From the NCBI GenBank assembly GCA_965204865.1, contig OZ242027.1, positions 2,243,986 to 2,307,985 of the forward strand: a stretch of DNA of 64,000 nt. Reading direction: 5' to 3'. Shown here one piece after another: positions 2,567 to 61,828 of the stretch. A program made the position numbers and the translations under genes. The DNA is from Dehalococcoidia bacterium. Its GTDB lineage: Bacteria > Chloroflexota > Dehalococcoidia > Lucifugimonadales > UBA3495. Under the pieces are notes generated by a model. The model had not been told where the DNA came from. It made no database searches and was given only the letters and a program-made list of their open reading frames with translations. The first letter of the stretch is position 1. Every line of letters begins with the position of its first letter.

Positions 2567-3538
2567 ATGTATACCCGAATCTTGACGCCACTGGACGGTT
2601 CCAACGTATCCGAGCAGGTTCTTCCCTACGCGCGGTCGCTGGCCGCCGGTCTGTCACTGCCGGTAACTCTGCTCTATGCCATAGAGCAAGAAATCTTTGC
2701 CCTGCCCCGGACTCTGGATAGATCGCTAAATTTTCAGGAAATAGCGGTTCGCCGGGTGCGGCAGGCCAGGGCCTATGCGGAGCCGGTGGCCGCCGAATTG
2801 AGGAAGGCGGGGCTGAACGTTCACGTAGATGTGCCCCAAGGCGAGCCGGCTGCGGCCATAGTGGAAGATGCTGCCAGAGACCCCGGCACGCTCATCACCA
2901 TGTCCAGCCACGGGCGCTCAGGGCTGGCCCGCTGGTGGATGGGCAGCGTGACCGACAAAGTAATGCGTCTGACCGGCAACCCGCTGCTGGTAATCCACGC
3001 CGGTTCAGGGCAACAGACGCCCCCGGAATTTAGGTTCGAGAGGATAACCGTTCCGGTGGACGGATCTGAGTTGGCCGAGGGGATTTTGCCCCATGCGGTC
3101 TATCTGTCGTCAGCCATGGGGCTTGCCGTTGACCTGGTTCAGGTCAACCCATCCCGGGATGAATACTACCGCTCTATGTCCATAGGCCCGTCGGAAGTGG
3201 CCCGCGTATCCCCTTCCTACGAGGAATATATCGAAACTGCGGACGCCGAGACCGAGAGCTATCTGGCTGAACTGAAGGCGCGGCTGACAGGGCAGGGAGC
3301 GGCGTCGGTGGAAACGCATTTGCGCCACGGCGCGGCGGCGGAAACTATCTCAGACCTGGCCGCCAATACTGCCAACAATCTGGTAGCCATGACCACCCAC
3401 GGCCGCTCCGGGGTGAGCCGCCTGCTGCTGGGCAGCGTGGCCGAGCGCGTGGTGCGCCAGTCCGGTGACCCGGTGTTGCTGGTGCGCGGCGGCCACAGCA
3501 GGCAAGCCCCTCTCGCCGGCACGCCCGCTTTGGCGTAA
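2567..3538 (+). CDS. universal stress protein, tandem UspA domains
   Basis: 323 aa; two repeats each ending ..MTTHGRSG..R..LGSVAE/TDKV.. typical USP ATP-binding motif. Confidence 0.85.
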   Translation: MYTRILTPLDGSNVSEQVLPYARSLAAGLSLPVTLLYAIEQEIFALPRTLDRSLNFQEIAVRRVRQARAYAEPVAAELRKAGLNVHVDVPQGEPAAAIVEDAARDPGTLITMSSHGRSGLARWWMGSVTDKVMRLTGNPLLVIHAGSGQQTPPEFRFERITVPVDGSELAEGILPHAVYLSSAMGLAVDLVQVNPSRDEYYRSMSIGPSEVARVSPSYEEYIETADAETESYLAELKARLTGQGAASVETHLRHGAAAETISDLAANTANNLVAMTTHGRSGVSRLLLGSVAERVVRQSGDPVLLVRGGHSRQAPLAGTPALA

Positions 3539-3618: not shown

Positions 3619-4557
3619 ATGTACTCGCGAATTCTGACGCCGCTGGACGGCTCCGAACATTCGGAACGAGTTCTGCCTTCTGCCCGCTCCCTGGCCGCCG
3701 GTCTTTCGCTGCCCGTAACGCTGCTCTATGCCATCGAGCCGGAACATCCCAGCATTTCCCAATCCCTGAACCCCAGGCTGCACCAGCATCAAACGGCGGC
3801 CCATCGCACTCAGCACGTCAGGGCATATTTGGAACCGGTTGCCGCCGGTCTGAGGAACGCGGGGCTGAACGTGGATATAACGATTCCCCAAGGCGACCCG
3901 GCCGCCGCCATAGTGGAAGAAGCGGCCAAAGACCCTGGCACGCTCATCACCATGTCCAGCCACGGGCGTTCCGGGCTGTCCCGATGGTGGATGGGCAGCG
4001 TGACCGACAAGGTGCTGCATCTTACCGAGAACCCGCTGCTGATAATTCACACCGCCGCGCAGCAACAGACTGAGCCGGAAGAGGCTTTCGAGCGCATCAC
4101 GGTCCCCGTTGACGGCTCGGAGCTGGCAGAGGAAATTTTGCCCCACGTGGCCTACCTGTCGGCAGCCATGGGACTTGCCGTTAACCTCGTTCAGGCTGTC
4201 CCTTCCCAGGAAGAATACTACCGCTACCTGTCCATCGGCCCGTCGGAAGTCTCCCGCGCGACGCCCTCCTATGAAGAATATGCCCAGATTGTGGACGGGG
4301 AAGCTGACTCCTATTTGGCCGAGTTGAAGGAGCGGCTGAGGCAACAGGGAGCGTCTCCAGTGGAAACTCAGTTGCTTCACGGCCCGCCAGCGGACTGCAT
4401 CGTAGATCTGGCAACCACTACCGCAAACAACCTGGTCGCCATGACCACCCACGGACGCTCCGGCGTGGGCCGCTTGGTGCTGGGCAGCGTAGCCGAGCGG
4501 GTGGTGCGCCAGTCCGGCGACCCGGTGCTCCTGATTCGTGGCGCACAGGGAGGCTAA
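3619..4557 (+). CDS. universal stress protein, tandem UspA domains (paralogue of 2567..3538)
   Basis: 312 aa; N-terminus MYSRILTPLDGSEHSERVLPSARSLAAGLSLPVTLLYAIE nearly identical to upstream gene; SD CAGGAG upstream. Confidence 0.85.
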   Translation: MYSRILTPLDGSEHSERVLPSARSLAAGLSLPVTLLYAIEPEHPSISQSLNPRLHQHQTAAHRTQHVRAYLEPVAAGLRNAGLNVDITIPQGDPAAAIVEEAAKDPGTLITMSSHGRSGLSRWWMGSVTDKVLHLTENPLLIIHTAAQQQTEPEEAFERITVPVDGSELAEEILPHVAYLSAAMGLAVNLVQAVPSQEEYYRYLSIGPSEVSRATPSYEEYAQIVDGEADSYLAELKERLRQQGASPVETQLLHGPPADCIVDLATTTANNLVAMTTHGRSGVGRLVLGSVAERVVRQSGDPVLLIRGAQGG

Positions 4558-4601: not shown

Positions 4602-4643
4602 AATTCCCTCTCCCTTGAGGGAGAGGGTTAGGGTGAGGGGGCG
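4602..4643 (-). repeat. REP-A palindromic repeat copy
   Basis: aattCCCTCTCCCttgaGGGAGAGGGTTAGGGTGAGGGggcg; convergent spacer between USP and dsbA-like gene. Confidence 0.9.
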
Positions 4644-4721: not shown

Positions 4722-5354
4722 CTACTGGCTGAGGTAGCGCTCCATCGCCTGCTTGAAGACCGGGTAGGGATGAGCGCCCGTGAACAGCAGGTTGCCCACC
4801 AGGAAGGTGGGGATGCCGTTGATGCCGTATTGCAGGGCCTCGCGGTACTGGGCAATGACCGTCTGCGAGTGGGCGCCCTGCTCCAGCGCCTTGGTCATAT
4901 CGGCCCCGTCCAGCCCCACGCTGTCGGCGATGGTTTCCAGCACCTCTATCTGGCCGATGTCCTTGCGGTCTTCCCAGAAAGCCTTGTAGGCGGCGTGGTG
5001 AAATTCCATGAACTTGCCGTGCTGCTGGGCGTACTCGGTGGCTTCCAGCGAGTAGAGAGTATTGGGAGTGCGGGACGACGGACGCATGATTAGGCCCGAG
5101 TCCCTAGCCTGGCTCCGCAGCGGCTCCGACAGTTCATCGTCGCTCTCTCCGGGGCGCTGCGGACGCTCTACTCCTTCCCGGGGAGTGTCAGGACGCAACA
5201 GGTATGCCCGGCCCTCCACCTCGATGTCAAATTCCTTGGCCAGATGGTCGACCCGTTCCAGGCCGATATAGCACCACGGTCAAATGTAGTCGTACCAGAC
5301 GGCTACCCGAACCGTGGCATGGTCGTGCTGCCCGTTATGAGTTTCCTGCGCCAT
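4722..5354 (-). CDS. DsbA/FrnE-family thiol:disulfide oxidoreductase with in-frame TGA (candidate selenocysteine, U-P-W-C)
   Basis: ATG 5354 with AGGAG 8 nt upstream; frame continuous through TGA 5282-5280: ..VAVWYDYI-TGA-PWCYIGLERV.. into track ORF 4722..5219; C-terminal GIPTFLV motif of DsbA fold. Confidence 0.7.
5236..5279 (-). promoter_or_regulatory. SECIS-like hairpin immediately 3' of the in-frame TGA
   Basis: Upper stem UCGGCC(5266-5261)/GGUCGA(5253-5248), 7-nt loop UGGAACG with GG; lower stem GGUG/CAUC; starts 13 nt after UGA. Confidence 0.45.
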
Positions 5355-5380
5355 GTCAACACTCCTGGCAATCGAGAGAT

Positions 5381-5417
5381 TCTCTATCCTTGTTGGGAGA
5401 GGGTTAGGGTGAGGGCG
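5381..5417 (-). repeat. REP-A copy (left arm degenerate)
   Basis: ..ttgGGGAGAGGGTTAGGGTGAGGGcg; contains stop codon of HAD gene (TAA on minus strand at 5404-5406). Confidence 0.8.
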
Positions 5418-6123
5418 AAGTCTCGGATTCCAGCAACTCGATGATTTCGACAAGCCCCGAGATTTTGGGACAGCCTTCCACCGGCTCGTGCCAGCCGCCC
5501 CGGTCCAGCAGCGCGGCCTGCATCCCCATGTCACGAGCGCCGGCCACGTCGGACCGGACTTGATCCCCGATATGCAGCACTTCCTCGGGCGCCGCCTCGG
5601 CGCGGCGCAGGGCTTCCTGGAATATGGGCGGGTGAGGCTTCTCTATCCCTGCTTGAACCGAGGTTACAGAAAAGTCGAGGATGCCTTCCAGCCCGGCCCG
5701 GCGAATCAGCGGCTCAAGGTCAGCCCGCAGGTTGGTTATCACCCCCAGCCGGTAGCCGCGCTCCCGCAGTGCTTCCAACGTGGGCATGGTGTCTTCAAAG
5801 GGAGTGAATTCCTTGGGAACGGCGATAGCCAGCCCCCATATCTGTCGTGCCAGTACGGTGGTCACCGGAACCCCGGCAGTCTCGAGGATGACCTGCTCAT
5901 ACTCGGCGAAAAATTCCAGCCGCCGCTCCGGTGAGCGCAGCGACAGCGGTTCATCTTCGTTGGCGCGGTTGAACAGAATGTCGGCCTTGGCGTAGCCCCG
6001 GCGAATCGCCTCTCGTGAAACACTCAGGCCCATCTTCCAGCAAGCGACCCGCTGAATTTCCTCCAGCGGGGGCCAGAACTTGACCAGCGTATTGTAAAAG
6101 TCGAAGGTGACAACCCTTATCAT
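5404..6123 (-). CDS. HAD-superfamily hydrolase
   Basis: MIRVVTFDFYNTLV (motif I), GDQVRSDVAGARDMGM (motif IV); C-terminal ..SETSPSP* is translated REP-A. Confidence 0.8.
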   Translation of the reverse strand: MIRVVTFDFYNTLVKFWPPLEEIQRVACWKMGLSVSREAIRRGYAKADILFNRANEDEPLSLRSPERRLEFFAEYEQVILETAGVPVTTVLARQIWGLAIAVPKEFTPFEDTMPTLEALRERGYRLGVITNLRADLEPLIRRAGLEGILDFSVTSVQAGIEKPHPPIFQEALRRAEAAPEEVLHIGDQVRSDVAGARDMGMQAALLDRGGWHEPVEGCPKISGLVEIIELLESETSPSP

Positions 6124-6360
6124 TCCATTTACCGGCCGGCCCCCAGCGGAGCGATTGTTGATATTGAGCCTGAGCAATATTGGTGTTCAGCAGACATGCC
6201 AGTCTAACACGGCACAGACTCCAATGCGAACCGCGATATGCCTAGTGACGCTAGGCATTGGCAGCCGGTTGGTATATCAGTATTCTTGACCCACCGGAGG
6301 GTATTTCCCCGGAACCCATACGCAGGAATGCAGCCGCCTCACGCTGCCGCGAGGACAAGG

Positions 6361-6822
6361 ATGAAGCTCGCCATCGGCGCAGACCACGCCGGATTCGACC
6401 TCAAGGCACAGATTGTTCCCTGGCTGGAATCATCAGGGCATCAGGTAGTGGACATCGGAGCGCACGCCCTCGACCCCGCCGACGATTTCCCCGACTTTGC
6501 CGCCGCCGTGGCCCGTTCTGTTAACGGCGGTCAAGCGGAAAGGGGCGTTATGATTTGCGGCAGCGGCGTCGGGGCCAGCATCGCAACCAACAAGGTTGGC
6601 GGAATCCGCGCCTGCCTGTGCCACGACACCTACACCGCACGGCAGGGCGTGGAGCATAACGATATGAACGTCCTCTGCCTGGGCGGGCGAGTCATCGGCA
6701 TCGAGACCGCCAAAGAGGTCATCGCGACCTTCATCGGCGCGGAGTTCATGCCCGAAGACCGCTTCCAGCGGCGAATAGACAAGGTGACCGAAATCGAGGC
6801 CGACAGGCTGAAGGTAAGCTAA
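6361..6822 (+). CDS. rpiB: ribose-5-phosphate isomerase B
   Basis: MKLAIGADHAGFDLK.., ICGSGVGASI.., CLCHD; GAGGA SD upstream of ATG 6361. Confidence 0.9.
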   Translation: MKLAIGADHAGFDLKAQIVPWLESSGHQVVDIGAHALDPADDFPDFAAAVARSVNGGQAERGVMICGSGVGASIATNKVGGIRACLCHDTYTARQGVEHNDMNVLCLGGRVIGIETAKEVIATFIGAEFMPEDRFQRRIDKVTEIEADRLKVS

Positions 6823-6892: not shown

Positions 6893-7696
6893 CTAAAGTT
6901 CTTCCAGGATCAGGCTCATCGCTTCCGAGACCTCACCGGGCGAGTCCAACTGGTGCAGCGCCACCGTGCCTTGGCGGGGCTCTCCCACAAACACCGCCAG
7001 TCCGCCCATTTCCTGTACCGCCCGGAAGCCGTCCTCGTCCGTCTGGTCGTCCCCGAAATAGACCGGGAAGGGACTGTCCCCTAGATTCCCGCTTTCGCGG
7101 GAATGACGGTGAATTTTCTCAATGGCCTTGCCCTTGTCCCATGCGATGGCCGGTCGCACCTCCACCACCATCTTGCCCTTCGTCAGCCGTAGCTGCCCGC
7201 TCTCGACGTAAGGCTCGGCTGTTGCCCTCACCACGTCATCCACTTCGCCCGTCAGCAGTTCGGGCGCGGCTCGGTAGTGGACGCTCAGGGTCAGCCCCTT
7301 GTGTTCCACGATTACGCCGGGAACATGGGCCAGCGCATTGGCCAGAGCTGTCCGAACTTGGTTCAGAACCTCCCGGGCAGCGATAGCTTGAGGATGCGTG
7401 AAATCCAGCCCCGGGCCGCGAATCTCCATACCGTGGTTGCCGGCGTGGATGAGACCTTGAATATCAGCCATAACAGCCAGGTCGGCCACGCTGCGACCGC
7501 TGACGATGCCTGCAATGCAACGAGGGTGCGCCGCCAGCGCCGTTAGCAGTCCCCGCGATTCCTCGGACAGCAGGGCGTCCTCGGGGCGGGCCACGATAGG
7601 CGTCAGCGTGCCGTCGTAGTCGAAGAGAAGAAGTATGCGGTCAGTACGGAACAGGCGCGCGCGAACCGACGGCCAGATGTTCAGCAGATGGGCCAT
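6893..7696 (-). CDS. otsB: trehalose-6-phosphate phosphatase
   Basis: HAD motif LLLFDYDGTLTPIV, C-terminal FGDDQTDEDGF; 8 nt downstream of otsA stop; contains in-frame REP-B copy. Confidence 0.85.
   Translation of the reverse strand: MAHLLNIWPSVRARLFRTDRILLLFDYDGTLTPIVARPEDALLSEESRGLLTALAAHPRCIAGIVSGRSVADLAVMADIQGLIHAGNHGMEIRGPGLDFTHPQAIAAREVLNQVRTALANALAHVPGVIVEHKGLTLSVHYRAAPELLTGEVDDVVRATAEPYVESGQLRLTKGKMVVEVRPAIAWDKGKAIEKIHRHSRESGNLGDSPFPVYFGDDQTDEDGFRAVQEMGGLAVFVGEPRQGTVALHQLDSPGEVSEAMSLILEEL
7082..7109. repeat. REP-B palindrome copy inside otsB CDS
   Basis: tagATTCCCGCtttcGCGGGAATgacgg; translated in otsB frame as ..HRHSRESGNLG.. Confidence 0.85.
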
Positions 7697-7704
7697 CAGG
7701 GGGC

Positions 7705-9213
7705 TTAGATGCTGCGGATGGGGTGGCGGGCGCGGCGCCCTACCTGCATCATATCCACCAGCGAGCGCGCCGCCCACTTGTAGATATTGTTCTCCTGCAC
7801 TACGCCCCTCATATTGGCCATCCGCACCTGGCGTTCCTGGCGGGGCATTTCCACCGCTTCCCGGATGGAGTCGCCGAACCGCTCCATGTCGTAGGGGTTG
7901 ACGATCAGCGCGTCGGTGAGTTCCAGGGCCGCGCCGGTGAAGGGGCTGAGAATCAGCACGCCGTCGTGGTCGTAGCGGCTGGCGACGTATTCCTTGGCCA
8001 CCAGGTTCATGCCGTCGTGCAGGGAGCTTACCACGCAGAAGCGGGCCAGCCTCCGCAGGGCCATCAGCGTCAGGTTGGGCAGGTCGGTGGGCATATACAT
8101 TATGGGCTGCCAGTCATCGGTGGCGAAGCGGCTGTTGACGTCCTCCAGCAGCCGGTCAATCTGGTCCGCAAGCTGCTGGTAGGCGATGATGTTGGTCCGG
8201 CTCATAACGCCGGCCTGAACGAACACCACCTTGCCGATGTATTGCGGGTTCCGCTCCAGAAAACGGTTGATGGCCCGGATGCGGTGGGGAATGCCCTTGG
8301 TATAATCAATGCGGTCTATACCCAGGCCGACTATCTTGTCCTGCAACCCCCACTCGACGGTGAGCCGTTCCATCTCCTGGGCGACCTCGACGCTTTGGGC
8401 GTCGATTTCCAGTTGGTCGAAGTCAACGCTGATGGGAACCGGGCGCACCAGGGTTGAGTCATCGCGGTGATATATCAGGCTGTATTCCTCGTGGACGCGA
8501 GCGCCCAGTATCCGCGATGCGGCTTCCATGAAGTTGTTGCAGTGGTCGCCGATGTGGAAGCCCAGCATATCGTTGCCCAGCAGTCCGTCCAGCAGCTCCT
8601 CCTGCCAAGGGCAGATGCGGAAAACTTCGTAGTTGGGCCAGGGGATGTGCCAGAACTGGCCGGTAATCACATCGGGTTCAAGGTCGCGGAGGAAACGGGG
8701 CAGCAGGGCCAGATGATAGTCCTGGATGAACACGGCGGCCGGGCGCCCGTCCATTTCCTCGCTGACCTGCTGGGCGAAGGCGCGGTTGACGGCGGTATAG
8801 GTTTCCCAGTCGGACTGCTCGAAGGTGGGTTCTATGAAGGCGTTGTGGCACAGCGGCCACAGCCCCTCGTTGGAAACGCCGTAGTAGTAACCCTGCTGCT
8901 GCTCGGCGGTCAGCCACACCAGGCGGAGGGTGTAGGATGGGTCGTCGGGCGGCACCATCACGCGGTTCTTGTCGTCCACCGCCAGGTAGTCGCCGGGGCC
9001 GCCTCCATGGGCAATCCACGTTCCGGCGCACTCCTGCATCAGCGGGTCAATGGCGGTGGTGACGCCTCCGGCAGGGGTGCTGACGCGCAATTCCCCGTCA
9101 ACCAGCTCGTGAACGTAAGGTTGACGGTTGGAAACGACAATTATCCGGTAGTCGCCAATCTCCCGGTTGACCAGACGCCGCAACCGATCTCTGGTCCAGA
9201 TGGGCTCTCGCAC
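7705..9213 (-). CDS. otsA: alpha,alpha-trehalose-phosphate synthase (GT20)
   Basis: 502 aa; VVSNRQPY, GLWPLCHN, IQDYHLALLP motifs; GTG start 9213 preceded by GAGGGAG. Confidence 0.9.
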   Translation of the reverse strand: MREPIWTRDRLRRLVNREIGDYRIIVVSNRQPYVHELVDGELRVSTPAGGVTTAIDPLMQECAGTWIAHGGGPGDYLAVDDKNRVMVPPDDPSYTLRLVWLTAEQQQGYYYGVSNEGLWPLCHNAFIEPTFEQSDWETYTAVNRAFAQQVSEEMDGRPAAVFIQDYHLALLPRFLRDLEPDVITGQFWHIPWPNYEVFRICPWQEELLDGLLGNDMLGFHIGDHCNNFMEAASRILGARVHEEYSLIYHRDDSTLVRPVPISVDFDQLEIDAQSVEVAQEMERLTVEWGLQDKIVGLGIDRIDYTKGIPHRIRAINRFLERNPQYIGKVVFVQAGVMSRTNIIAYQQLADQIDRLLEDVNSRFATDDWQPIMYMPTDLPNLTLMALRRLARFCVVSSLHDGMNLVAKEYVASRYDHDGVLILSPFTGAALELTDALIVNPYDMERFGDSIREAVEMPRQERQVRMANMRGVVQENNIYKWAARSLVDMMQVGRRARHPIRSI

Positions 9214-20614: not shown

Positions 20615-20655
20615 GACGCCCTCACCCTAACCCTCTCCCTCTGGGAGAGGGGATT
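20615..20655 (+). repeat. REP-A copy (near consensus)
   Basis: GACGCCCTCACCCTAACCCTCTCCCtctGGGAGAGGGgatt; spacer pncB/etf. Confidence 0.9.
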
Positions 20656-26433: not shown

Positions 26434-26474
26434 GACGCTCTCACCCTAACCCTCTCCCTCTGGGGGAGGGAATT
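26434..26474 (+). repeat. REP-A copy
   Basis: GACGCTCTCACCCTAACCCTCTCCCtctGGGGGAGGGaatt; spacer between the two ACAD genes. Confidence 0.9.
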
Positions 26475-27670: not shown

Positions 27671-27709
27671 GTTCCCTCTCCCTTGAGGGAGAGGGTTAGG
27701 GTGAGGGTG
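27671..27709 (-). repeat. REP-A copy
   Basis: gttCCCTCTCCCttgaGGGAGAGGGTTAGGGTGAGGGtg. Confidence 0.9.
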
Positions 27710-44028: not shown

Positions 44029-44076
44029 AATTCCCTCTCCCTCTGGGAGAGGGAGAGGGTTAGGGTGAGGGCGTAC
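44029..44076 (-). repeat. REP-A copy (extra GGGAGA unit)
   Basis: aattCCCTCTCCCtctGGGAGAGGGAGAGGGTTAGGGTGAGGGcgtac. Confidence 0.9.
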
Positions 44077-44931: not shown

Positions 44932-44971
44932 GACGCCCTCACCCTAACCCTCTCCCTCTGGGAGAGGGGAC
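44932..44971 (+). repeat. REP-A copy (consensus)
   Basis: GACGCCCTCACCCTAACCCTCTCCCtctGGGAGAGGGgac. Confidence 0.9.
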
Positions 44972-52296: not shown

Positions 52297-52363
52297 GCCC
52301 TCACCCTAACCCTCTCCCTTTGGGAGAGGGAAAATGGGTAATCCTTTCCCAGAGGGAGAAGGA
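52297..52363 (+). repeat. REP-A copy plus adjacent degenerate hairpin
   Basis: GCCCTCACCCTAACCCTCTCCCtttGGGAGAGGGaaaa ... TCCTTTCCCagaGGGAGAAGGA; spacer gnd/zwf. Confidence 0.85.
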
Positions 52364-59734: not shown

Positions 59735-60907
59735 CTATCGAGTCAGTTCTTCGCGGAGCCGCCGGATAACCACCTCGGTTTCCTCTTCGGTAAGGTTGAG
59801 GGGGTCTACGGCCAGTTCCTGGGGGCCGCCCAACTGGTGCAGGTGTATCTGCGGGCTGCCCTGCTCCATGGCGGCGGCGATGCTCTCGCGGGAGGGGCCG
59901 CGCCATTCTTCGGTGAAGCGGATTACGGCGTGGGGTATCAGGTAGTTGATGCCATCGTGTTCCAGGGTCACGCGCAGTCCCGGCAGTTCCACCAGAGCGT
60001 CCACCGCTTTCTGCGCCATTGAGCGGTAGGCGGCCATTTCATCCGCTTCGTCCTCTTCTACAAATGCTGCCAGCGATGCCACCAGCCCGATGATTTCTTC
60101 CTTCGCGACTTTCATGCCCCGTCCGAGGAACTGGGCGGGGTTAGCCTGGGCGGCGGCGGCTTCGATGAGGTCGGCGCGACCTACGAGGATGCCGCTACCT
60201 TGAGGCCCGCGGACACCCTTACCGCCGCTGTACACCACCATGTCGGCCCCGGCCTGGAGATAGCGGTAGAGGTTGGCGCGGGGCGGCAGCATGGAGGCGG
60301 CGTCCACGATGACCGGCACGTCGTGGGCATGGGCTATCTCGCAGACACGCTCCAGCGGCAGCACCTTGTTGCTGGAGAAGGGGGCGCAGAGGTAGGCGAC
60401 GGCGGCAGTACGCTCGTTGATGGCTCCCTCAAGCTGCCAGGGGTGGGCGAAGAGGTAATCGCCGAACTCCACCATCCTGGCGCCTGCGGCGCGGTAGGCC
60501 TGATCGTAGGGGAAACGGTGCATGGTGTGGATGACGATTTCATTCTTCAATCCGTCGGTGTTGGGGAGCTGGCGCATCTTGACCGGGTCGTTGCCGGCGA
60601 TGACAGCCGCCGCCTGTAGCACCAAGCCGCCGGCCGCTCCGCTGCACACGAAGCCGGCCTCGGCTCCGGTGAGGCGGGCGAGTTCCTTTCCTGCCGCCCG
60701 GTTCAGCTCGTCTATGTTTACCATAACCCGGGCGGCGCGAGACATCAGTTCCAGGGCTTCGGGGCGTGTCCGGGTTCCGCCCAAGCGGGTTATGGAACCG
60801 GCGGCGTTTATTATGGGGGCAACCCCCATTCGCTGATAGAGGGCATCAGCATCCCAGGCGTTGGTGCTGTCGGCCACGGCTCCCTCCTGCGTCCCGTTTC
60901 CTGTCAT
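59735..60907 (-). CDS. SelA-fold (DgaE-like) PLP-dependent enzyme; not a canonical selenocysteine synthase
   Basis: ..PIINAAGSITRLGG.., ..VYSGGKGVRGPQGSGIL.. (PLP-Lys context); lacks SelA N-terminal domain; start ATG 60907 chosen (GGGAG SD), 61021 alternative. Confidence 0.7.
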   Translation of the reverse strand: MTGNGTQEGAVADSTNAWDADALYQRMGVAPIINAAGSITRLGGTRTRPEALELMSRAARVMVNIDELNRAAGKELARLTGAEAGFVCSGAAGGLVLQAAAVIAGNDPVKMRQLPNTDGLKNEIVIHTMHRFPYDQAYRAAGARMVEFGDYLFAHPWQLEGAINERTAAVAYLCAPFSSNKVLPLERVCEIAHAHDVPVIVDAASMLPPRANLYRYLQAGADMVVYSGGKGVRGPQGSGILVGRADLIEAAAAQANPAQFLGRGMKVAKEEIIGLVASLAAFVEEDEADEMAAYRSMAQKAVDALVELPGLRVTLEHDGINYLIPHAVIRFTEEWRGPSRESIAAAMEQGSPQIHLHQLGGPQELAVDPLNLTEEETEVVIRRLREELTR

Positions 60908-61035
60908 TGGCTCCCGGCACCCTTCCAGGCGGCGATTGCCCGACATTATATCAACAACATCCATACTGCGGACGTGTGGTAACATTTCAGCAGATTTTTC
61001 CTTGCATAGCGAGGGAGCCAAGGTGAGGGCGCACT

Positions 61036-61803
61036 ATGTCAGTCGCCAACGATACTCTTGAAAGGCTGTCCACGAAGGCGAAAATCGGGCTGGTGGTGGT
61101 GAGCGCCTCGACGGTATCAGAGCTTCGCTACCCGAAAGTCGTGCCGGATGTCGGGTTCTTCGCCAGCAGGATGATGCTGGCCGGCGACGGGCTGGAGGCT
61201 TTGCTGGAGATGGAGCACAACTCGTCGCGGGCGGTGCAGGAGCTGGCCTCGGCGGGGATGGACTCCATCGCCTACTGCTGCACGGTCAGCGGAGCGCAGC
61301 GCGGCCTGGCGAAGGACCGGGAGTTCTGCGCCAACATGGAGCGGCAATGGGGGGCGCCCACAACCTCGACGATGCTGGCGGCAGCCGAGGCGTTGCAGCA
61401 CCTGGGCATCGGCCGGGTTGTGCTGACCAGCCCCTACCCGCACAGCTACCACGAGGCAGAGAGCCGATACTTGGCTGAGGCCGGGATCGAGACCGTAGCG
61501 GCTTCGGGAATGGGGTTTGTAACCGCCGCAGAGTTCGCCGCAGTTTCGCCGGAGGAGATATACCGCTTTGCGCTGGAAGCGTGGCAACAGAACGGCGGAG
61601 AGGCCGATGGACTGTTCATAAGCTGCATGAACTTCGACGCCATGGCCGCGGCCCAGGCATTGGAGAACGCCATCGGCAAGCCGGTGGTGACCTCGCACTC
61701 GGCCACGCTGTGGCGGGCGCTGGCGCTGGCCGGGGTTGCCGAGCCGGTACACGGTTACGGGCGGCTGCTGGCGGAACGCCGGGAAGGGACGCCCTCACCC
61801 TAA
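61036..61803 (+). CDS. Asp/Glu-racemase-superfamily protein (maleate isomerase / arylmalonate decarboxylase-like)
   Basis: Two Cys contexts AYCCTVSG and FISCMNF; stop TAA 61801-03 lies in REP-A. Confidence 0.75.
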   Translation: MSVANDTLERLSTKAKIGLVVVSASTVSELRYPKVVPDVGFFASRMMLAGDGLEALLEMEHNSSRAVQELASAGMDSIAYCCTVSGAQRGLAKDREFCANMERQWGAPTTSTMLAAAEALQHLGIGRVVLTSPYPHSYHEAESRYLAEAGIETVAASGMGFVTAAEFAAVSPEEIYRFALEAWQQNGGEADGLFISCMNFDAMAAAQALENAIGKPVVTSHSATLWRALALAGVAEPVHGYGRLLAERREGTPSP

Positions 61804-61828
61804 CCCTCTCCCAAGGGGAGAGGGAATT
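61788..61828 (+). repeat. REP-A copy (consensus)
   Basis: GACGCCCTCACCCTAACCCTCTCCCaagGGGAGAGGGaatt immediately followed by ATG 61829. Confidence 0.9.

Follow-up and report, generated by a model that had tools for sequence, protein, structure and literature searches.

An in-frame TGA codon in a DsbA-like gene

The stretch of DNA analysed here (64,000 nucleotides, referred to as the window) contains a gene on the minus strand that raises a simple question: is the TGA codon at positions 5282-5280, which interrupts an otherwise open frame at what appears to be the redox site of a DsbA-like protein, a stop codon, or is it decoded as selenocysteine (Sec)? An earlier note on this DNA proposed the second answer. 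The comparative analysis described below, which draws on the DNA of orthologous and more distant loci, leads to the view that 5354-4722 (minus strand) very probably holds a genuine selenoprotein gene, whose product would belong to the FrnE type of the DsbA family, be located in the cytoplasm and carry the motif U25-P-W-C28.

The frame opens at an ATG (5352-5354, minus strand), crosses the TGA (5280-5282) and remains open until a TAG at 4724-4722, a run of 210 codons. The coding sequence (4722-5354, minus strand, TAG included) would specify a Sec-containing FrnE/DsbA-like thiol-disulfide oxidoreductase of 210 residues in which Sec25 and Cys28 form the redox pair. The unbroken path from the ATG through the TGA into the downstream open reading frame (ORF), as described in the earlier note, was re-read and the translations agree; the read-through product is MAQETHNGQHDHATVRVAVWYDYI-*-PWCYIGLERVDHLAKEF..., with PWCYIGLERV following directly after the TGA. 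A Shine-Dalgarno element, AGGAG, is present at 5362-5366 (minus strand) as that note had seen, although the gap that separates it from the ATG is 7 nt and not 8. The start codon lies 24 codons before the UGA and recurs across orthologues, nearly all 61 of which have a GGAG or AGGAG Shine-Dalgarno-like element and an ATG about 24 codons before the TGA. The mechanical list of ORFs opens the downstream frame at GTG 5219, the position given earlier from a six-frame reading, and assigns it 165 amino acids.

The predicted protein and its active site

When the TGA is translated as Cys, the read-through product is matched by the Pfam DSBA profile (PF01323) with an E-value of 9.2e-31 and a score of 107.5 bits (cut-off 25.6). 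The match spans profile positions 2-190 of 191 and residues 17-204 of the product. Among proteins of solved structure the closest homologues are FrnE of Deinococcus radiodurans (DR_0659; 5cnw, E 1e-16) and SCO1869 (3gl5, E 6e-16), members of the FrnE subfamily cd03024, to which residues 13-205 can be aligned; FrnE gives its name to COG2761. The fold and the active site of the window protein are already placed by these sequence matches. Shared features are the motif W-x-D-[IY]-x-C/U-P-W-C-Y-[IV]-G and a G-[IV]-P-[TF]-F loop, whereas the window protein differs in having a predicted Sec at the nucleophilic position and in an overall identity of only about 30 %.

In the alignments to 5cnw and 3gl5 the TGA column coincides with the first Cys of W-S-D-I-A-C-P-W-C-Y-[IV]-G, which is Cys22 of the CPWC motif in FrnE. 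Full-length distant relatives (27-45 % identity) read SDY[IV]CPWCY[IV]G in the same place, and representatives with either CPWC or CPFC are found. The proposal that the TGA stands at the N-terminal redox Cys of a DsbA/FrnE CxxC site is borne out by these Cys-containing homologues, in all of which the TGA column equals Cys. The redox motif of the window protein accordingly reads U25-P-W-C28, where Cys28 (TGC, 5271-5273, minus strand) is the resolving Cys of the UxxC and the sole Cys of the protein. A proline codon at 4809-4811 (minus strand), Pro182, lies in the G-I-P-T-F loop and aligns with GVPFF of FrnE and SCO1869; from knowledge of the family we take this residue to be the cis-Pro of the thioredoxin fold.

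The N-terminus, MAQETHNGQHDHAT, is hydrophilic and runs straight into the first strand, with no signal peptide or membrane anchor seen on inspection of the sequence. Because a signal peptide is absent, the window protein is likely to be cytoplasmic like FrnE, and taken together its features point to an FrnE-type oxidoreductase of the cytoplasm. Many FrnE proteins, though not all, possess a C-terminal CxxxxC tail; drFrnE is regenerated through it, and the window protein has none. FrnE itself is cytoplasmic, and the FrnE proteins of D. maricopensis and S. roseofulvus are also without a C-terminal CxxxxC (PMC8945050), so that the missing tail does not disqualify the window protein from the FrnE subfamily.

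Conservation of the TGA codon

Orthologues were collected as the DNA of 61 loci from 61 species-level metagenome-assembled genomes (MAGs) of Dehalococcoidia/Chloroflexota, at 61-97 % identity. Several of these MAGs are labelled SAR202 or are of sponge origin, and many are long-read, chromosome-level assemblies. Complete genomes with the orthologue include OZ242013.1 (97 % identical), OZ243924.1 and OZ241328.1. Counts out of 62 refer to these 61 orthologous loci together with the window sequence. A TGA occupies the active-site column in 61/61 orthologues, in the context VWYDY[IV]-TGA-PWCY[IV]GLERV, and the search was not biased towards this outcome because the scan pattern that spanned the site had been back-translated from Cys. 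More distant relatives were found among 1.84 billion representatives, and the DNA of 80 distant relatives was obtained from metagenomes. The active-site codon of these is TGA in 59, TGC in nine and TGT in eight (n = 76), so the Sec form dominates among the environmental relatives sampled, in a TGA:TGY ratio that is biased by the Sec-type queries with which the sample was seeded.

These counts bear on the simplest objection, namely that the TGA arose through faulty sequencing or assembly, or that a Cys-containing gene has recently decayed into a pseudogene here. Nothing speaks for this beyond a stop codon in a single sequence, and it is vanishingly unlikely given that the same TGA is seen in all 61 independent genomes as well as in 59 metagenomic contigs of unrelated samples, and that the frame is intact with purifying selection on both sides of the TGA.

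Selection on the upstream side is visible in the codons themselves. The valine ten positions upstream of the TGA is conserved in 61/62 sequences and is written with four different codons; since amino acids are kept here while codons vary, the segment before the TGA is translated in this frame. The strand formed by VRVAVWYDYI is under protein-level selection and matches the part of FrnE that leads up to CPWC.

A second alternative accepts the TGA as genuine and has it terminate translation, which would leave a 24-codon upstream ORF and a separate DsbA-like protein, devoid of a CxxC, initiated at an internal GTG or ATG. This is the split that gene callers predict in all of the best 120 database entries, and the GTG at 5219 does yield an ORF of 165 amino acids. 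The best 120 matches among 5.8 billion proteins are all 158-184 amino acids long; their coverage of the query is 73-86 %, and every one begins beyond the motif. The called start is not at a fixed place, however (MGLERV..., MERVDKLA..., MAKEFDI... and MEGRAY... are all encountered), whereas the residues PWCY[IV]GLERVD... that lie between the UGA and the called starts are conserved as protein in every genome. Database entries that begin just past the motif are the signature of gene callers that were halted at one and the same place. The protein-level selection on VRVAVWYDYI, a segment matching the one before CPWC of FrnE, likewise argues against termination at the UGA, and it would not be parsimonious for a motif-less DsbA body to occur in more than 100 lineages, always accompanied by a remnant of the motif and a hairpin. 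Termination at the UGA is considered extremely unlikely on these grounds, and decoding as Sec is the reading retained here. The distant search also returned many truncated relatives, beside full-length ones with Cys. The truncated ORF has no exact counterpart on record in public assemblies, and no NCBIfam model reaches its cut-off for the window protein.

The TGA codon keeps its ordinary meaning elsewhere. It terminates the same gene in 7/62 genomes and closes about 9/52 gene segments within the window, and for these reasons it is not reassigned genome-wide. The base on the 5' side of the UGA was also considered as a possible recoding signal, as the codon there has the form xUU and its final U is fixed in the SAR202 clade (62/62); the same U is not fixed in other Sec forms, and this variability outside the SAR202 clade rules it out as a general signal.

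The hairpin downstream of the UGA

Bacterial SECIS (bSECIS) elements are described by a model with a loop of 3-9 nt, a stem of 4-16 bp and a G in the first two loop positions; the typical loop is N1-G-[G|U]-N-N2, the distance from the UGA is 16-37 nt, and the minimum free energy (MFE) is at or below -7.5 kcal/mol (PMC13188914). The window contains the hairpin reported in the earlier note, at 5266-5248, that is, 5248-5266 on the minus strand. It begins 13 nt past the UGA and has the stem UCGGCC/GGUCGA, composed of five invariant pairs and one or two variable ones, and the 7-nt apical loop UGGAACG (5254-5260, minus strand), in which the conserved G at 5258 corresponds to alignment column 25. The distance from the UGA to the loop is 19 nt. 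The likeness to bacterial SECIS geometry that had been proposed for this hairpin extends to all of the published bSECIS constraints, and the hairpin is in addition conserved, covarying and confined to TGA genes, as set out below.

In the window sequence alone the stability of the hairpin is unremarkable (66-nt MFE of -17.5 kcal/mol, z = -0.63 against shuffles), and because a single-sequence thermodynamic test is uninformative here, comparative evidence was used instead. A lower stem, GGUG/CAUC, that had been suggested as an extension of the element does form in the MFE fold of the window sequence but is not conserved in relatives, and was dropped as part of the element. RNAalifold faintly suggests an alternative lower stem, which would pair columns 11-13 with 38-40. 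No Rfam family matches the hairpin region at gathering thresholds. A permissive Rfam scan gives SECIS_3 at 14.5 bits against a cut-off of 63 (E 1.6), which is at chance level and off the hairpin.

Compared with the SECIS elements of E. coli fdhF and fdnG and with the bSECISearch consensus, the window hairpin is alike in its location directly 3' of the UGA within the coding sequence, and it has in common with the fdhF/fdnG elements a small apical loop with an early G (followed by G or U) and a spacing within 16-37 nt. The bulged U in the 3' arm also recurs, in the relatives L068, L069 and L074. The window hairpin differs from fdhF/fdnG in having an unrelated sequence, a shorter stem (5-8 bp) and no Rfam model that detects it.

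Across the 62 orthologues the loop is 7 nt long and follows UGGARMG, an instance of the N1-G-G-N-N2 pattern in which U23 can pair with R27 in 60/62 sequences. The stem has 6 bp, or 5 bp in 15/62, within an overall range of 5-8 bp. The MFE of the 45-nt segment is at or below -8.8 kcal/mol in 62/62, and the core stem is within the MFE structure of 61/62; the hairpin taken alone reaches -7.5 kcal/mol or lower in only 46/62. Codon usage within the stem is restricted. The stem codons are frozen (xUC; GGC in 62/62; CUG in 62/62; GUC in 59/62; GAC in 53/53) and the loop codons are variable. Outside the element, codon entropy averages 1.28 bits over 127 conserved degenerate columns and none of them is invariant, with the single exception of the Ile codon immediately 5' of the TGA. 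Covariation was not detected among the 62 orthologues, as the arms are invariant within the SAR202 clade, and for that reason distant relatives were needed for a covariation test.

The distant relatives have hairpins at the same position that are built from other sequences, for example UCGGCC-AGGGUGU-GGUCGA, UCGACUCG-GUC-CGAGUCGA and UCGGCCUC-GUG-GAGGUCGA. Pairing was counted over a 7-bp helix (columns 17-23 with 29-35) in 69 Sec forms and 15 Cys forms. In the Sec forms 96.7 % of cells are paired, compared with 89.3 +/- 0.9 % after column shuffles, none of 500 of which reaches the observed value, and with 20-51 % in slid registers. In the Cys forms 61 % of cells are paired, which is no different from controls: 115 of 500 shuffles reach the observed value, and slid registers give 27-49 %. 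One relative, L095, has nevertheless kept a hairpin and may have changed from Sec to Cys only recently. Two-sided changes in the Sec forms affect three pairs and 36 cells (0/500 shuffles), whereas those in the Cys forms are not above shuffles. The pair between columns 23 and 29 illustrates this variation, being A-U in 35 Sec forms, U-G in 20, C-G in nine and U-A in two.

The loop and the third codon positions behave in the same manner. The loop G of column 25 (5258 in the window) is invariant in the 69 Sec forms even though the codon to which it belongs specifies Glu, Gly, Val, Ala or Asp, and this column is variable in the 15 Cys forms. Columns 18, 21, 30 and 33 are third codon positions inside the stem; each is uniform throughout the distant Sec forms and mixed among the Cys forms, and third-codon positions outside the stem vary in both. 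Only where the codon is TGA does the hairpin show selective constraint, and this pattern is what one expects of a SECIS element that overlies a coding sequence.

Proposed decoding of the UGA and the Sec machinery

In the mechanism proposed for this gene, translation would begin at the ATG at 5354. At the UGA (5282-5280) the hairpin at 5266-5248 would recruit SelB carrying Sec-tRNA(Sec), Sec would be inserted, and translation would continue to the TAG at 4724-4722. The predicted product is a 210-amino-acid thioredoxin-fold protein with a helical insertion, which may cycle between the selenol/thiol form and a selenenylsulfide with Cys28 and so reduce or isomerise cytoplasmic disulfides. Selenium would be expected at the UGA.

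None of the selenocysteine genes selA, selB, selC and selD was found in the window or in 141 loci (about 1 Mb) by tblastn with E. coli SelA, SelB and SelD and by ARAGORN, and ARAGORN finds no tRNA in the 64-kb window. The only SelA-like ORF, at 59735-61021 (minus strand), was examined as a candidate SelA and rejected, as its score with TIGR00474 (selA) is 50.6 bits against a cut-off of 267.9. Its best profiles are DgaE and selA_rel (217 and 215 bits, both under their own cut-offs), and it is a DgaE-family paralogue of SelA that provides no evidence of Sec machinery. One of the loci with a TGA orthologue, L044 (MPMM01000001.1), belongs to bin22 of Slaby et al. 2017, for which Table S4 of that study lists one SelB, one SelD and two SelA-family proteins; SelB is listed for all five SAR202 bins in the same table. 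The genome from which the window derives would likewise be expected to encode SelA, SelB, SelC and SelD.

The lack of Sec machinery in the window and related loci is what speaks for a third alternative, in which the UGA is read through without Sec: the residue added would be Trp, Cys or Gly, brought by a near-cognate or suppressor tRNA, and the hairpin would serve only as a stimulator of read-through or a pause site. Against this, the UGA falls on the nucleophilic Cys of a CxxC, a classic Sec/Cys position, and the hairpin agrees with the bSECIS model on all four counts, its invariant loop G being correctly spaced from the UGA. TGA is an ordinary stop codon elsewhere in these genomes, a genome that carries an orthologue has been published with SelA, SelB and SelD, and the family is an accepted selenoprotein family. 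Read-through without Sec is regarded as very unlikely in the light of these observations, which favour insertion of Sec by way of the hairpin.

Genomic neighbourhood and scans of the window

A gene for a HAD-family hydrolase (Pfam PF00702; 5404-6177, minus strand) lies directly upstream, separated by a gap of 49 nt, and a HAD hydrolase occupies this position on the same strand in 60/61 loci. Further upstream, trehalose-6-phosphate phosphatase and synthase (OtsB/OtsA) are encoded in 57/61 loci. RpiB is found on the opposite strand in 50/61 loci, and a tandem pair of USP genes is located downstream in 29/61. The HAD gene is a conserved partner of the Sec gene, with which it may be co-transcribed. 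About 95 nt past the stop codon there is a terminator-like hairpin, CCCTCTCCC-TCAA-GGGAGAGGG followed by AATTTT (4606-4627, minus strand), within a REP-like element. The DsbA-like gene belongs to the vertically inherited core of this clade. The literature on FrnE and the conserved neighbours (the HAD hydrolase, OtsA/OtsB and USP) suggest a role in stress protection.

The remainder of the window was scanned in several ways. A scan based on the gene map gave no convincing case of a second selenoprotein gene in the window. A scan by codon score was swamped by antisense shadow frames and missed the DsbA-like gene itself. A cross-genome comparison of all frames is dominated by conserved off-frame translations, and the DsbA-like gene is the only cluster it recovers in 62/62 genomes.

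Relation to known selenoprotein families

The window gene adds an unannotated member to a family known since 2005 and is not a new kind of system. A DsbA-like UxxC selenoprotein (COG2761) was then described as a new family in Sargasso Sea data, where nine sequences were presented along with a figure of the SECIS element (Zhang, Fomenko & Gladyshev 2005, PMC1088965), and was later reported from deltaproteobacteria and clostridia (Zhang et al. 2006, PMC1794560). Peng et al. 2016 (PMC5029168) found it in 41 organisms, and a 2026 review enters it as "DsbA-like form 1, PF01323, UxxC" (PMC13188914); all later selenoproteome surveys include it. AACY01178397 and NIP15863.1 are among its published representatives. 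The window gene is like this family in its PF01323 domain, in a UxxC with Sec in first place, in a SECIS immediately downstream and in the existence of widespread Cys homologues, a likeness judged from the published descriptions, and nothing essential differs. New with respect to these accounts are the fixation of the Sec form in all 61 sampled species of Dehalococcoidia/SAR202 type, the HAD-OtsB-OtsA neighbourhood, the truncation of every close database entry and the failure of any NCBIfam model to reach its cut-off.

Implications for annotation and for the selenium biology of the clade

General knowledge of selenoproteins is unchanged by this gene, as both the family and the mechanism are textbook material for the field. 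The consequences are more immediate for annotation. The gene and all of its close relatives in public collections are annotated without the catalytic N-terminus, that is, without the first strand and the UxxC, and function predictions, structure models and family profiles that are built on such truncated entries therefore miss the active site. There is no NCBIfam model that would allow a standard annotation pipeline to rescue the gene. The paired Sec and Cys forms also constitute a natural experiment, in which a SECIS element is imposed on a coding sequence and is lost when UGA changes to UGY.

The retention of a Sec-dependent cytoplasmic oxidoreductase across the whole Dehalococcoidia/SAR202-type clade implies a standing requirement for selenium. 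This clade includes many sponge symbionts, and the Sec gene is situated in a conserved neighbourhood related to stress.

It is conceivable, although on balance doubtful, that Sec rather than Cys is the majority state of the FrnE-like subfamily in nature, and possibly the ancestral one; the suggestion is based on the 59 TGA as opposed to 17 TGY codons in the metagenomic sample seeded with Sec-type queries, and on a syntenic core gene, linked to the HAD hydrolase and OtsA/OtsB genes, that is fixed in the Sec form in 61/61 SAR202-type species. A more radical variant of this idea would give the UGA and its hairpin the part of a translational gate on the stress module, opened in dependence on selenium. 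If Sec were indeed the majority state, public protein databases would be missing the active site in most members of the subfamily, and a globally abundant clade of ocean bacteria and sponge symbionts would have selenium as an obligate micronutrient.

Gene neighbourhood and interspersed repeats

The selenoprotein gene, an FrnE/DsbA-like gene on the minus strand (4722-5354), lies at the end of a cluster ordered otsA (7705-9213), otsB (6893-7777), rpiB (6238-6822, on the opposite strand) and a HAD hydrolase gene (5404-6177), an arrangement that is conserved between the window and the 61 orthologous loci from species-level Dehalococcoidia/SAR202-type genomes. These four neighbours were found in 50-60 of the 61 genomes, and a tandem pair of double-domain USP genes (2567-3538 and 3619-4557) lies downstream of the selenoprotein gene in 29 of them.

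The selenoprotein gene is also bracketed on both sides by copies of a REP-like element, CTCACCCTAACCCTCTCCC, which occurs 18 times in the window (at most 3 mismatches) versus 0.03 copies expected. The copies, the majority of which are intergenic, include those at 4619-4637, 5395-5413, 20621-20639, 26440-26458, 27687-27705, 44051-44069, 44938-44956, 52300-52318 and 61794-61812, and those that overlap ORFs translate as '...PHPNPLP..GRG..'. At 4606-4627 the element runs on into a palindrome, CCCTCTCCC-TCAA-GGGAGAGGG, followed by AATTTT, and together these look like a terminator.

Codon context of the UGA and distant relatives

The codon preceding the UGA (5283-5285 in the window) is xUU in all 62 genomes (AUU in 50, GUU in 12), so that every member of the SAR202-type clade has a U immediately before the UGA. 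Other selenocysteine lineages have AUA, AUC, GUC or ACC at this position, and the xUU context preference is confined to the SAR202-type clade.

A distant metagenomic relative with TGC at the first redox-site codon (L095:104-166) still shows a hairpin of 7 bp where the Sec forms carry their SECIS, with a loop that starts without G. This Cys form may have switched from Sec to Cys only recently and retain a SECIS as a fossil; alternatively, its pairing may be due to chance. Among the representative proteins, some distant relatives (P0128, P0130, P0137, P0145 and P0151) are very long, at 600-1163 aa, and match the C-terminal part (half) of this domain in 3-5 separate places at about 30% identity. 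They have the appearance of DsbA-like modules that are fused or repeated in tandem.

SelA-family paralogue and stop-codon usage

The window also encodes a SelA-family PLP enzyme on the minus strand (59735-61021). With 217 bits for DgaE/'selA_rel' versus 50.6 bits for true SelA (TIGR00474), it is a paralogue of the former type and not a selenocysteine synthase. Published tables list 2-4 COG1921-based 'SelA' copies in each SAR202 bin; paralogues of the DgaE/'selA_rel' type inflate such counts.

Of the 52 segments in a crude gene map of the window, about 30 terminate with TAG and about 13 with TAA, whereas TGA accounts for only about 9, a usage that looks atypical for a genome of 62% G+C. The DsbA-like gene itself ends in TAG or TAA in most of the 62 genomes. 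It is a matter of speculation that this stop-codon bias is tied to selenocysteine decoding.
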